NCBI GenBank assembly: GCA_964016885.1
Contig: OZ024741.1
Coordinates: 163,246,001-163,310,000 of the forward strand
Length of the DNA: 64,000 nucleotides
DNA from: Eledone cirrhosa
Lineage: Eukaryota
Direction of reading: 5' to 3'
The translations under genes and the position numbers were made by a program. A model generated the notes under the pieces. That model did no database searches. It was not told where the DNA came from and worked only from the letters and a program-made list of their open reading frames with translations. This document shows positions 1,850 to 64,000 of this stretch, piece by piece; the first letter of the stretch is position 1; each line of letters begins with the position of its first letter.

Positions 1850-2030
1850 AAATATAAACACACAACACACAACACACAAAAACAAGATGGTGTAGGACAG
1901 AACAAAGGAGAGACACACTAAATAAAACCCTAGTCACCGAAGAGCTCACAGAATGTGTGACGAAAGAGCTTTGAAAATATATAAACAACCTTCCGGTTAT
2001 CGAACCAACCAACCGGAATCTTATAATAAA
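1850..2030 (+). mobile_element. Terminal repeat related to the 3' end of the 22565-24618 element, with HHR-like motif at 1934-1974
   Basis: TCA-CCGAAGA-GCTCACA...TGTGAC-GAAA-GAGC-TT-TGA; 1850-1915 also inverted at ~1356-1415. Confidence 0.55.
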
Positions 2031-3217
2031 TTGAAGTGAAAAACCAACAGGTGAGTGTGTTTATATTGGCAGTATGACCTTCCCAAAGTATAACAATATC
2101 TGATTCAACACATGTTTTCAGTTAGAAATCTCGCAAAACAGATTCAGAAACAAATATATATGAGACATTCACATACTCTCATCAGATGTACGCCATGGCC
2201 ATAATGTACACACATGCACACACACACACACACACACACACACACACACACACACACACACACACATAGACATACACACACAAATACACACACACACACA
2301 TATATATATCTATAAGTATATATATATATATATATATATATATATATATATATATTTATATATATATGTGTGTGTGTTTCTGTGTGCATGAAATAATTTA
2401 TTTCCTGTCTCTCTTTCCAGTCGGTTTTCCGGACTCAGTCTTTGAAAACAACTTCCGTTTCAGTTAAGAAATTGCTGTGAAATGAAGATCGAGACATATT
2501 ATAAGAAATCAGTGTAACAATTTCCTAAGAGTAACAAATGCACTACTGGTGATTCATTAGAGTATAATAAAGGTGTGTATGTATCTGTCTATTTATGGGG
2601 AAAGACTGCGACGAATATATAGGAGACGAAGACAGATGGACAAAGAGAGGCATACTAATTGATAAAGACACATTAAGAAAGATAATAAATAAAACAGAAT
2701 ATGAGATAAAGTAGAAAACTTTCCATCGTATCTGAAGCTGTTAGAAATAGCTGTTAATGTCCACCTCTATATTAACCAATTGCTTACACTTGTGCATATT
2801 ATTTTACTATATATTACATTATGTCCTAAGCAGCTGGTGTATGCTAGAAATAAACATCTATATAGAAATAGTAAAATATTTAATTAAGGCTGCGAAAATG
2901 TGTATGTAAAGATCCAAACTTACATGTGAAAGCATGTAAATATGATTTATTCACGCATTTTTCTGTAGATCTAAATAGATTGGCAGTTTGAGGCTAGTGT
3001 CGGTTGTATTTGGACTTATCTTCAGAAGCAGTGAACATATCTTACAACAGTACAGGCAGACATATGCCTATAGTGATCATATGTCTGCATGATCAGAGCC
3101 ACCCCAGAGATAAACAAGGAGCGCTAATACGTATCAACGAAGGAGCTTACAAATGAGAGTTCGACTTGCAGAATGTATCAGCAAACCTATACAATGTTAT
3201 TACAGTGGATTTGCAGT

Positions 3218-3905
3218 TGGCGCTGGATTGGCAGAATCATTACAGTTTCGGCCAAAATGCTTCGTAGTATTTTGTTACACCTATACATTTGAGTTCGAAT
3301 CACGTGACGATCAACTTTACTTTTCATCCTTCCAGGGTCCATAAATGAAAGTAACAGTCAAAAACTGGGTCGAGGTTAAACGTCTTTCCCTTCGCACCCA
3401 AAGTGCTTGCTTTCGACCTAAACCAGAAACAATTATTGTTATTAATACATGTAAGAGTCATGGATTGGCAGTATCGGTAAAAGGGTAAAGACTCCCTTCG
3501 GTCACTAATAACCATAGGATTAGCATCTAGAAAGTTCCCTTCCGAAGGGCAAGTCAGGGCATGGTTGTTTGTGGAAGACCAGCAGTCGCCCATGCATACC
3601 AGTCTCCCATCTACACGTTACCGATGTTGTCCAAGGGAAAGGCAAAAGCCAATACAGCTTTGCTCCAGTGACGTCGCAACTCATTTCTACAGCTGAGTAA
3701 ACTGGAGCAACGTGAAATAAAATATCGGTAATGTCTCGGGTAAAATGATTTGCAGTGTTTAGACCGAGCTAAAATCCGACCGAGGTCAACTTTGCCTTTC
3801 ATTCTTACCGTGTTGATAAAATAAAGTACCAGTTAAGTACTGGATTCGATATAAGAGACTTTTCCCATCCCTCAAATTGCTGGCCTTGAGGCTAATGTTA
3901 GAAAG
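3218..3905. mobile_element. Cluster of old SINEs (family 1 at ~3218-3435 + and ~3735-3905 +; family 2 at ~3467-3725 -)
   Basis: Diverged matches to both SINE families. Confidence 0.7.
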
Positions 3906-4104
3906 ATTTACCTGATCACAAGATGTACAGAACATATTAATTTTTAAGAATGATAGCACCAACTTATTTCTGTTTCATTCTTGCTTTCGGGTGACGAATT
4001 TTCACTATTAGTTGTCTGTCTGTAACATACTCTAACATTTAAGGCTTTCTTTTTAGATTTAATATGCATTTCAGTAATGTTTTATGATTGAAGCAAATTA
4101 AAGC

Positions 4105-4270
4105 GAGACTCCGACAGCTGAGCTCCGGCCGTTTCAACGGATCTAGCTGTTGAAACGGGCGGAGCTCAGCTGTCGGGGTCCTTAATTTTTCATATTATCC
4201 ACTCTACTACCCAAGTATCGAGTACTCTGGTGAGTAATGGTCTAGCTAGTTTTTACCGCCTCCAATTTGT
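4105..4270 (+). mobile_element. Short fold-back 3' end of the 45134-49060 PLE family (diverged)
   Basis: GAAACGGGCGGAGCTCAGCTGTCGGGGTC...ACTCTACTAC...GAGTACTCTGGTG with inverted 5' part. Confidence 0.7.
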
Positions 4271-4585
4271 TATATATATATATATATATAATATATATAT
4301 ATATATATATATATATATATATATATATATATATATATATATATATATATATATATATATATATATATATATATATATATATATATATATATATATATAT
4401 ATATATACACACACACACATATATATTTATATATATATATCCAAAGATTAATATGGTTCATTGATTACTCAATGAATACAGTTTTACAATAGATTAAAAG
4501 CATTCAACAAAAATATTTTCCTGGGGTTTTTAATATTATTCAAAATATTAACAAATGAAGATATTCAGATAATCAAATTATATGC

Positions 4586-60952: not shown

Positions 60953-61480
60953 CTTCCTGTCGCCACAGTGCCGGCCGCATTCCACGCCATACTGCCCTCA
61001 ACGAGGTCATTAAGCATGGCTTGGACGTTGCAGGCTTCCCTTCCCAGCTCGAGCCGGTGGGGCTGGATCGAGGGGACGGCAAAAGGCCAGATGGCATGAC
61101 CATCTTCCTGTTCCGCGGTGGCAAACCCCTCGTCTGGGATTCCACTTGCACCGACACTTTCTGCAGCCGCAACCTGATGCAGTCTGCGACTGACCCAGGT
61201 TCTGCTGCACGTCGGGCTGAGGGGGCCAAACTCCTCAAATACGGGTCGCTCTCCGACAGGTTTGCTGTCGTTCCTCTGGCAGTGGAAACTTCTAGTGTCC
61301 TCGGCCCCCTCCGTACTCACCACCGTAGGCGCTGAGCTGGCCAGCCGTAGGTGTGAGCCCCACGAGTTGGAGTGGCTTTTCCAGCGCGTCTCCCTTGCCG
61401 TCCTCCGGGGAAATGCCTTCTCCATTCTGTCCGCCGGGGCTGTGGGTGGGCCCCATCGCGTACCAATACATTAGTTAAAT
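60953..61480 (+). pseudogene. CRE-like non-LTR retrotransposon 3' fragment (restriction-like endonuclease)
   Basis: SCRHSAGRIPRHTALNEVIK, LEPVGLDRGDGKRPDGMT...LVWDSTCTDT, LAVET, WLFQRVSLAVLRGNA; one frameshift near 61310; GC-rich. Confidence 0.8.
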
Positions 61481-61932
61481 ACCATTCTTTCATCTCATAC
61501 AAATATTCTTGCTTAAGGTTTCCAAATGTATAGAAACACGCAAGAAATATCTACTTTCTCATTACCTTTAAAAATAGTAATCTATTTTTATTATAAAAGT
61601 AATTGTAGATACATAATCGAATCTCCAACAGTACACTTGTATTCTTTTGCTAAGTTTGAATAGCATAAGGCGCATGTTCTTGTGTCAATTTATGTTCATT
61701 ATAAATTGATGATAAATCTCACAAAATAATATATCGAAGACATTAAAGGCTACAAATGTCGTTAATAATTTATGTTGTAAAGAGACTATATTTATTACGT
61801 TCTAGATAGATCCTTAAACTGAAATTTAATTACTCCACTTCAGTAAATTTATGGTACTTCAACAATAAAAAATATTTACCACATTCGTAAGAAAGATTAA
61901 AAGGAGAGTACCAATGCACCTTTTAAACTATA

Positions 61933-62120
61933 TAATTGTTTCTACTTGTGGCACAAGGCCAGCAATTACTCAGTGCATTACTGGTACTTTATTTTATCGA
62001 CCCTGTAAGGATGAAAGGCAAAGTTAACCTCGGCGGGATTTGAACTGAGAATGGAAAGGGCCGTAACTCTATGCGTCAAAGCATAGCGTCCAACCCTCTA
62101 CCGATACTGCCAATCCACCA
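61933..62120 (-). mobile_element. SINE family 1
   Basis: Near-complete reverse-complement copy. Confidence 0.85.
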
Positions 62121-62474
62121 ATGAATACTATTGTCAGCATTGCACTTCCAGCGATATTTCATTTGTCAATGTTTACTTTGAACTCATGATCAAAATCTAT
62201 ATTTTAAAGGTCAAGCTGATCTCCGTCACAACATATATGTAACAAGAGAGAAGAAGGAGGAAGCAAAAGAGGAGATAACCCTTTCACAACATATATGAAG
62301 GAGGGAAGAAGGGGAGGAGAAAAAGTTCTTGTTGAGAGAGAGAGAGAGAGAGAGAGAGAGAGAGAGAGAGAGAGAGAGAGAGAGAGAGAGATTGTGTGTG
62401 TGTGTGTGAGATAGATAGGCTGTGATGTCAGAATGAAAGTGATGACGCCAGTCTTTAGAAAAAGACTTCCACTA

Positions 62475-62810
62475 TAATTGTTTCTACTTTTGGCACAAGG
62501 CCAGCAATTATCTCAGTACATTACTGGTACTTTATTTTATCGACCCCGTAAGGATGAAAGGCAAATTTTACCTCAGTGGGATTTGAACTCAGAACCTAAA
62601 GGGCCATAATTCTATGCTGCAAAGCATGGTGTCTGACGCTCTAATAATTATTTATACTTTTGGCACAAGGCCAGCCATTATCCCAGTGTATTACTGGTAC
62701 TTTATTTTATCGACAACGTAAGAATGAAAGGCAAAGTTAACTACAGCAGGATTTGAACTCACACCATAAAGGGCCGTAACTCTATGTTGCAAAGCATGGC
62801 GTCCAACCCT
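62475..62810 (-). mobile_element. Two head-to-tail SINE family 1 copies
   Basis: 62475-62645 and 62650-62810. Confidence 0.8.
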
Positions 62811-64000
62811 ACGTTGTTTGTTATTTCTTTTTTAGAGAGAAACATAGTGAGAGTGTGTGAAAGATAGATAAATAGTATAAAACGTAATTCAACAATAGGG
62901 TGACGTCATAATAACAAATTGACATATTTCAATATTTTTCATTGGGAAAAATTTCCTCTGAAGTTTCCAAGTGTTTTCCATTGTGAATTTTTGCTTAATA
63001 TCGAATATGTCTGAAACTGTCCGTTATTTAACATAACATTATTCACAAACGTTCGCCCTCGAATCATCAGCCTCTAATGCCATACCAATGGAACATTTGG
63101 ATTTTGTGAGAAATATTTAAGAAATAATGCTGAGCTATCTGTGTGTGAGTACAAATCATCCATAAAACAAGCTATTTGGGGGGGGGGGGGTTGTGTGTGT
63201 ATGTATTTTACTGGCAGAATAGCGAGAGGATTTTACGAATATGAATAGTTTATAACGGTATTTCCACACATGTGTAAATGTTTATTGACATATTGAAAAA
63301 TTACTCCTTACTGTTCGCTAGTGCCTCAGATAATAGACATGTATCAACTTTTACTTTCATATAACTTTACTTATCCTTTTATAGCGATAAACATATCGAG
63401 TGAGTTATCAGCACCCAAGAGGCGTTTTCAGTGTCATCATAGCACTATGTACCCATCTCTAACTAACTGACTGATAGATTAAATACTAACTTTGAGATAT
63501 TTCAGTTCTTTGCAGATTTAAGGACACTAACAAAGTGGTAAGCATTTTAGTTTGAATCAAGGCAGTACCGAGACATTTGTAATATGATTAAGTTTTTATT
63601 GCATATATGCAGGTGTAGGCGGCGCAATAACAGAATCTCTAGAACGCCGGTAGAATACTTCGTGGTGTTGGTTTCGGCTCGTTGTTCCTTGAATTCAACT
63701 ACCACCGAGGTCAACTTTGTTTTTCACCTTTTTGAGGCCGATAAAAGAAAGTTGACTGTCTACTACTGGGGTCGATTCTTCCACTATATCTCTTTCTCAC
63801 TTTCTTTCTCTCACACTCTCTATCCTTCTCTGAAAGGAATCTGCTGTGTTCAGACCTGAAGAGGCATCGGTTCCGTCGGGTTTAAAAATGCCCTAGAAAC
63901 GCCGTAACACAATACGGCGCTCCTACAATTTACTCAGGTGTTATGGGACCATGTATGTACGTATATGTAGGTGTATATACATGAGGCACGTAGCCTAGTA

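Follow-up and report, generated by a model that had tools for sequence, protein, structure and literature searches.

Hammerhead motifs in the window

The sequence analyzed here is a 64,000-nucleotide stretch of the genome of the octopus Eledone cirrhosa (GenBank assembly GCA_964016885.1, contig OZ024741.1, forward-strand positions 163,246,001 to 163,310,000), hereafter referred to as the window and numbered from its first base. The window is AT-rich and dense in TA, CA and GA microsatellites, and it contains two Hydra-clade Penelope-like element (PLE) copies, one putative Neptune-type PLE remnant and a total of about 15 intact hammerhead ribozyme motifs (two of them with a weak helix I), one U4C variant and at least 12 hammerhead remnants (Table 1). 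With high confidence, we interpret these motifs as type I hammerheads located near the 3' ends of many PLE families and in a tandem non-coding repeat likely mobilized by PLEs, at a density that represents the normal background of this genome.

Scanning the window with a strict type I descriptor returned only three sites. Since this descriptor was too narrow, a tolerant scorer was written for this analysis, admitting at most one core deviation, a long domain II and a helix III that may be palindromic or closed as a hairpin. Thirteen sites in the window score 24 or higher, compared with a mean of 0.68 and a maximum of two in 25 local dinucleotide shuffles, and no matches were obtained in the reversed window. 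The motif excess on which the original prediction, a reading of the sequence alone, had staked its case against shuffled controls is hence real. The type I order of elements, with a CUGANGA core or its U3-A8 form, GAAA and a UH cleavage site, was found at 15 window sites. Rfam identified no hammerheads in the window at gathering score, and none among the best 150 of 261 weaker E-value matches.

The original prediction listed 22 sites as some 20 hammerhead motifs from about ten families. Nineteen of these sites are hammerheads or remnants of hammerhead-bearing repeat families, sites 56354 and 63856 are unsupported, and our own family count is about 14–15. All ten sites described as well formed show an intact core (CUGANGA or UUGANAA, U3-A8), GAAA and a UH site, with eight scoring 28 or higher; site 6340, which has a short helix II, was missed by the scorer, yet its family has 41 matches, and site 30541 combines an intact core with a damaged helix I. 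Eight of the ten sites described as variant or decayed come from families in which other copies retain an intact hammerhead. Site 1934 carries U4C and a damaged helix I, 16871 has damage in helices I and III, 34108 is of the minimal type with a weak helix I, 45146 and 48871 share G12A, and 51101 carries U4C; 22358 and 40253 are 3' halves left after truncation. Site 56354, in contrast, carries A9G, is its own sole exact match in the genome and has no relative in the fetched DNA. Site 63856 is a member of an old repeat family with 459 exact genome matches; in most of 20 inspected copies the core reads CUGGAGA and both U16.1 and helix I are missing, leaving the site unsupported as a hammerhead. 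Among the sites listed as truncated, 28201 is indeed a truncated member of a minimal-hammerhead family intact elsewhere, and 51612, a candidate only, is its own sole exact genome match. Four well-formed sites (24821-, 26882+, 27468- and 44602+) and three decayed ones (16863-, 22684- and 44232+) were absent from the list.

Penelope-like carriers and hammerhead structure

Hammerheads flank open reading frames (ORFs) for reverse transcriptase (RT) and GIY-YIG in families PLE1, F and A/D, and follow ORF remnants in families G and K. These five families bear out the association of type I hammerheads with PLE ends on which the original prediction had drawn. The Hydra clade of PLEs with a C-terminal endonuclease is marked by a DKT motif, a CxCx5C linker, and CxxC and CxH motifs flanking the final E and N (Craig et al., 2021, PMC8557442). 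All of these marks occur in the carriers identified here. A longer copy of the 24674-27137 element, in genome stretch L190, has a 766-aa open frame with DKT, CxCx5C, GIY-YIG, CxxC and CxH; DKT is also found in a copy in stretch L233, and the linker and Cys motifs in families PLE1, F and D. The L190 copy and families F and D share a single-ORF layout of RT followed by a C-terminal GIY-YIG, in under ~3 kb. Insertion into (TA)n targets, hammerheads, inverted arms and a tail are likewise present as in Hydra-clade PLEs, but the clade, described as mostly cnidarian with few mollusc families, is very abundant here, with more than 55,000 hammerheads in one superfamily. The L233 copy reads RWR in place of the RWK motif, and N-termini are mostly truncated. 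Twenty-six homologs were found at 29–36%; Pfam recognizes none of the PLE ORFs, reporting GIY-YIG only at E = 0.07. Family K, with an intact core in 14 distinct copies, shows a Cx4CxxC linker before GIY-YIG in broken pieces (23391-23779) and in relatives. This linker has the Cx2-5CxxC form expected of Neptune-type elements, which Nematis also shares. We take family K to be probably Neptune-type, in line with the description in PMC8557442.

Within-family covariation, the other check put forward with the original prediction, was analyzed in the A/D superfamily on 21 sequences, comprising three window copies and 18 of 30 loci chosen as distinct; the other families were inspected by eye. The loci were fetched with a pattern that leaves domain II free and partly fixes helices I and III. 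Double changes occur in seven of nine helix II pairs, with 29 double-changed cells versus 9.5 after shuffling (0 of 500 shuffles reach this number) and at most seven when slid, while the core remains invariant. Given this constraint on helices I and III and the relatedness of the rows, the covariation is to be read as support, not as a probability.

Among 136 motifs, C3-G8 is swapped for U3-A8 as a pair (109 CG, 21 UA, both forms being favored by the scorer), the 10.1-11.1 pair is G-C in 27, and 15 have U17 sites. The U10.1-U11.1 combination of family B was already known (PMC3088659). U4C (CCGANGA) recurs, in small numbers, in the families at 22358 and 51107 and in stretches L037, L145 and L171, and its frequency in distinct copies of three families is 3/5, 2/3 and 4/8. 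Since CpG decay would act in the opposite direction, U4C may be a variant carried by master elements.

Copy ends and the predicted cut site

Most families have two discrete 3' ends downstream of the cut (F +20/+93, C +80/+239, D +57/+136, K +128/+174), and families A and H have one within the reference used. A (TA)3 sequence follows 152 of 189 copy ends, versus a 9% background. Among 203 copies that include DNA 3' of the cut, 155 extend across it, whereas 45 begin downstream, three begin within 5 nt and none begins at +1. The paired two-end pattern matches the two internal reverse-transcription starts and tail reported for PAc, a Poseidon element of Anolis (Frangieh et al., 2024, PMC11167929), which also shares AT-rich targets and an uncut RNA substrate; PAc belongs to another clade, and its tail measures 30–40 nt, compared with 50–160 nt here. 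In family F stubs, 5' truncation points mostly pile up 25–48 nt upstream of the cut, inside domain II, a distribution that could reflect reverse-transcriptase stalling or a length effect.

Genome-wide density and effects on host transcripts

The genome was sampled in 79 stretches of 10 kb at round coordinates (790 kb), which contain 93 matches scoring 28 or higher, against 1–5 in shuffles. Adding a minimal-type scan and subtracting seven false matches in stretch L159 gives 103 motifs, or 130 per Mb (bootstrap 91–177). Two tandem families, of 310 and 591 bp, were over-sampled (16 versus 2.2 and 5 versus 2.0 expected, respectively), and a second estimate of 109 per Mb was therefore computed without the tandem-rich stretches L158, L159 and L161; for the largest family, 15 motifs were seen versus 14.6 expected. 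Extrapolation to 3.0 Gb yields ~300,000 motifs (roughly 2.5–5 x 10^5). Genome-wide counts, obtained as exact-pattern matches, amount to 55,455 for the core pattern of A/D (0 when reversed), 8,414 for the core of the 310-bp family (0 in the reversed control), 14,882 for the family F 3' half, 67 for PLE1, and 13,638 versus 3,011 in the control for a loose hammerhead pattern. The A/D and 310-bp counts set a floor for the genome total.

Two further claims of the original prediction, that most islands between microsatellites are PLE termini and that any transcript crossing the region faces cleavage, proved overstated. A library of hammerhead-bearing ends, which includes some short interspersed nuclear element (SINE) contamination and misses some families, touches 22 of 49 short islands, or about half, and covers a minority of non-microsatellite bases (8,962 of 57,327). 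In most intact motifs, helix III is a short palindrome that requires a partner copy; PMC4209133 describes such PLE hammerheads and also reports low in vitro activity. For seven of 13 window motifs, a near-complete antisense copy that would pair with them lies within 5 kb. Among the 103 sampled motifs, at least 36 have a partial antisense copy, 24 are in tandem and 51 are neither. Given these antisense twins and the absence of copies starting at the cut, cleavage of host transcripts by window motifs is doubtful, and in host transcripts the majority of genomic copies are probably inactive. Cutting would be most plausible at 8575/9166+, 6383- and 27468-, which have a partner-free helix III and, among those tested, no detected antisense twin.

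An origin of the motifs as chance folds in DNA rich in AT and palindromes can be dismissed with near certainty. Chance or look-alike matches do arise, as seen at 56354, at 63856 and in the L159 satellite, but they do not account for the excess over shuffled sequence, the abundance of the A/D core pattern relative to its reversal, or the covariation of helix II. The chance-fold reading is already refuted at 19 of the 22 listed sites. It also appears very improbable that the window constitutes a local ribozyme cluster that processes or limits transcripts across it. Motifs do lie on both strands, some of them partner-free as noted above, and the window holds 12 matches against a sample mean of 8.3 per 64 kb; at P=0.19, however, it is typical of the genome and not the local concentration that the original prediction had pictured as a ribozyme zoo. 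The flanks point the same way, with seven matches in the left 100 kb and 36 in the right 100 kb, 19 of which fall in one tandem array, and the window copies do not stand out from the other members of their dispersed families, which run to thousands of copies; many carry core mutations.

Tandem families and proposed mechanism

Family C is made of non-coding 591-bp units arranged head-to-tail, each with a type I hammerhead, and has 7,488 exact 23-mer matches in the genome, no frame over 86 aa and no significant match to PLE proteins. Its arrays are short and dispersed, lie between TA tracts and possess inverted arms. Differences between units, per ~390 nt, average 0.8 on the same strand, 1.3 between opposite arms and 8.6 between arrays. 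Folded as a circle, the unit attains z=-6.7, with helix I spanning the junction. These properties fit a retrozyme of the non-long terminal repeat (non-LTR) type. In sequencing runs X1 and X5, family C appears as one closed ~620-nt contig and family F is sparse or absent, but an RNA circle and low-coverage tandem DNA are inseparable in such data, which were not used as evidence. A 310-bp tandem hammerhead array of 17 units plus two inverted ones, ending in (TA)n, is located ~40 kb to the right of the window (L183:8500-10000, L184:1-4400); this array would represent a second retrozyme family.

Similar to non-LTR retrozymes (Cervera & de la Pena, 2020, PMC7229834; Li et al., 2026, bioRxiv 10.64898/2026.07.22.740005), family C has non-coding tandem units with one type I hammerhead each, is strongly self-paired as a circle and co-exists with PLEs. 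It differs from the retrozymes in those accounts in its 591-bp length, U3-A8 core and long domain II, and in bearing PLE-type marks (two fixed ends, an inverted arm and TA targets).

Two alternatives bear on how these elements move. Family C might be satellite DNA spread by unequal crossing-over instead of a retro-copied RNA circle, as its head-to-tail, near-identical units and the lack of an identified driver element would allow; its short, dispersed and (TA)n-flanked arrays, with inverted arms and two fixed ends as in coding PLEs, make this unlikely. A more serious contender, which we nonetheless consider clearly the weaker account, holds that in many families the hammerhead fold is mainly a protein-binding or folding signal beside the reverse-transcription start, with cutting weak or dispensable. 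Copies that read through the cut site agree with it, as do the recurrence of U4C in several families, the common U17 sites and the PAc system, where hammerhead mutants leave in vitro insertion unaffected and cleavage needs protein (PMC11167929). It sits poorly with a core that stays invariant while helices covary, with the paired nature of the C3-G8 to U3-A8 swap (subject to the scorer's preference for these forms) and with the retention of one hammerhead per unit in tandem families.

Several observations weigh against interpreting the motifs as ribozymes of PLEs and PLE-mobilized repeats. No ORF link was shown for families B, E, H and J or for 27468, 22358, 28201 and 40253, and no driver element was identified for family C. 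One of 19 family C opposite-arm pairs differs at 18 sites, and array homogeneity in this family could also stem from gene conversion. In minimum free energy (MFE) folds, a clear three-way junction is seen only for family C, 27468 shows it as a centroid, and family B site 6383 lacks it in its MFE fold; z-scores are weak at five of six folded sites (-0.2 to -1.6). The home-made scorer produced the seven false matches in the satellite of stretch L159 that were dropped from the counts, BLAST would miss ~20-nt stubs starting at the cut, and cleavage at the listed sites is a prediction.

Under the interpretation of the motifs as PLE-associated ribozymes, the reverse transcriptase of the element likely starts at one of two fixed points 20–240 nt downstream of the cut, and the copy would be inserted into a (TA)n tract, usually with an early stop and often with the addition of an inverted copy. 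As the hammerhead is just upstream of the start points, short stubs would include it and an inverted arm would double it, such that very small stubs would hold one hammerhead or two. As copies continue across the cut site, the inserted RNA would have been either uncut or rejoined there. By cutting, the ribozyme likely resolves multimeric element transcripts into units able to circularize, acting as dimers where helix III is a short palindrome, and family C would be copied round such an RNA circle. Folding would be selected in a few master elements, with inserted copies subsequently decaying.

Other features of the window

Family A hammerheads form part of nested inverted repeats (4441-6208), in which family A arms surround a second AT-rich inverted pair (~4980-5730). 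An abundant ~200-bp SINE-like repeat is present in ~12 window copies, some as inverted pairs. A broken coding-like stretch with many stops (1-1200) is probably a decayed transposon or viral-type gene. The GC-rich stretch at 60874-61470 includes a coding piece, presumably resembling the restriction-like endonuclease end of a non-LTR retrotransposon, for which Pfam returned no match. A TA-flanked repeat family (1440-1800, 32167-32710 and 49500-50150) has CUGANGA near its 3' end and GAAA upstream in a hairpin, an arrangement that matches no hammerhead topology and is reminiscent of the "half core" cases of Naiads (PMC8557442).

Table 1. Hammerhead-bearing and related repeats in the window, with window coordinates and predicted cut positions.
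Feature	Position	Strand	Details
Family K end (putative Neptune-type PLE), decayed hammerhead	1855..2154	+	C3 1937 (U4C), cut after 1971, inverted arm 1357-1411
Short family F remnants	4107..4251, 15681-15870, 27938-28014, 39964-40153, 51284-51423		Hammerhead 3' half and/or tail
Family A hammerhead	4583..4648	-	Core 4640 intact, palindromic helix III, cut after 4591, inverted twin of 6104
Family A hammerhead	6096..6162	+	Core 6104 intact, cut after 6154
Family B hammerhead	6339..6389	-	Core 6383 intact, U10.1-U11.1, 3-bp looped helix III, cut after 6345
Family C 591-bp tandem retrozyme insert (putative), short inverted arm	8470..9482	+	U3-A8 hammerheads 8575/9166, cuts after 8652/9243
SINE-like repeat copies	9589-9780, 14899-15300, 28717-28865, 29495-29650, 31507-31690, 49308-49480, 53314-53760, 57196-57390, 61923-62120, 62474-62820		
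Family D hammerhead	16283..16348	-	Core 16340, inverted twin of 16507
Family D hammerhead	16499..16564	+	Core 16507, cut after 16556; family adjoins Hydra-type ORFs elsewhere
Family B inverted pair	16807..16935		16878+ (core intact, helices damaged), 16863- (decayed)
Hammerhead 3' half, 5' half lost	22365..22455	+	Family has 10-bp helix I, often U4C core
Decayed putative Neptune-type PLE	22574..24600	-	Cx4CxxC linker, GIY-YIG pieces; family K terminus, decayed hammerhead 22684
Hydra-clade PLE copy	24674..27137	-	RT + GIY-YIG ORF 25195-26713, one frameshift, 5'-truncated
U3-A8 hammerheads of PLE copy 24674..27137	24821, 26882	-, +	24821- sense, 26882+ in inverted arm
U3-A8 hammerhead, long helices II and III	27336..27473	-	Core 27468, cut after 27341
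Minimal hammerhead, 5'-truncated, core lost	28132..28232	-	Family intact elsewhere
Family E hammerhead	30546..30632	+	Core 30550 intact, helix I damaged; 5' half of a relative at 44232
Family D end, partial inverted arm	33315..33634	+	Hammerhead 33538
Family J minimal hammerhead	34107..34140	+	Core 34110, weak helix I
Hammerhead 3' half, cut off by inversion	40250..40290	-	Family intact elsewhere
Family H hammerhead	44594..44664	+	Core 44602, top score in window, cut after 44656
Family F Hydra-clade PLE, inverted arms	45134..49054		ORF pieces 45943-46884 (-), 46887-47500 (+)
Family F hammerheads within 45134..49054	45237, 48876	-, +	Both G12A
Family G	50131..51267	+	Hydra-type endonuclease C-terminus 50131-50391, then hammerhead 51107 (U4C, U17)
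Second family C insert	51718..52632	+	Inverted partial arm + unit; hammerhead 52317, cut after 52396

Relation to known systems and significance

Type I and minimal hammerheads were described in metazoan PLE pseudo-LTRs by Cervera & de la Pena (2014, PMC4209133), and the presence of hammerheads in PLEs, their U3-A8 form, their occurrence as opposite-strand pairs and the multitude of families per genome are thereby already known; what is notable here is the genome-wide scale. The E. cirrhosa motifs match that description in having a type I topology and a palindromic helix III, in falling into many heterogeneous families represented mostly by lone truncated copies, and in showing opposite-strand pairs, the U3-A8 core variant and, in some families, an extra base after A9. 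They depart from it in the domain II of many families, which reaches ~115 nt, in their mostly non-G-C 10.1-11.1 pair, in the recurrence of U4C and in number, estimated at ~300,000 here and at ~4,000–9,000 per genome there. Published counts include ~9,000 in Xenopus and ~4,000 (PMC4209133), more than 6,000 in a coral, ~5,000 in a mussel and up to 120,000 in the 28-Gb axolotl genome (PMC7229834), and giant squid has 235 Rfam hammerhead matches; the estimate of ~300,000 made here is higher than each of these, although, since the published counts stem from narrower descriptors, the comparison is not like for like. In the literature we found no account of hammerheads in an octopus genome beyond the squid Rfam count, although the supplements of PMC8557442 may list such families, and ribozymes go unmentioned in the main text of the Octopus vulgaris repeat paper.

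We give roughly even chances to the joint proposition that this is the densest animal hammerhead population yet counted (~100 per Mb, ~300,000 motifs in dozens of diverse families, largely driven by Hydra-clade elements and missed by Rfam) and that the 591-bp inserts record a PLE reverse transcriptase copying a ribozyme-made RNA circle. If true, this would open a direct test of animal retrozyme movement and of host selection against sense-strand intronic ribozymes. The insertions are numerous enough to test both host-RNA cutting by PLE hammerheads, through intron strand bias, and retrozyme mobilization by PLE machinery. Double-stranded RNA is a likely product of the many inverted arms, and hundreds of thousands of natural variants would constitute a large mutational library for ribozyme biochemistry.

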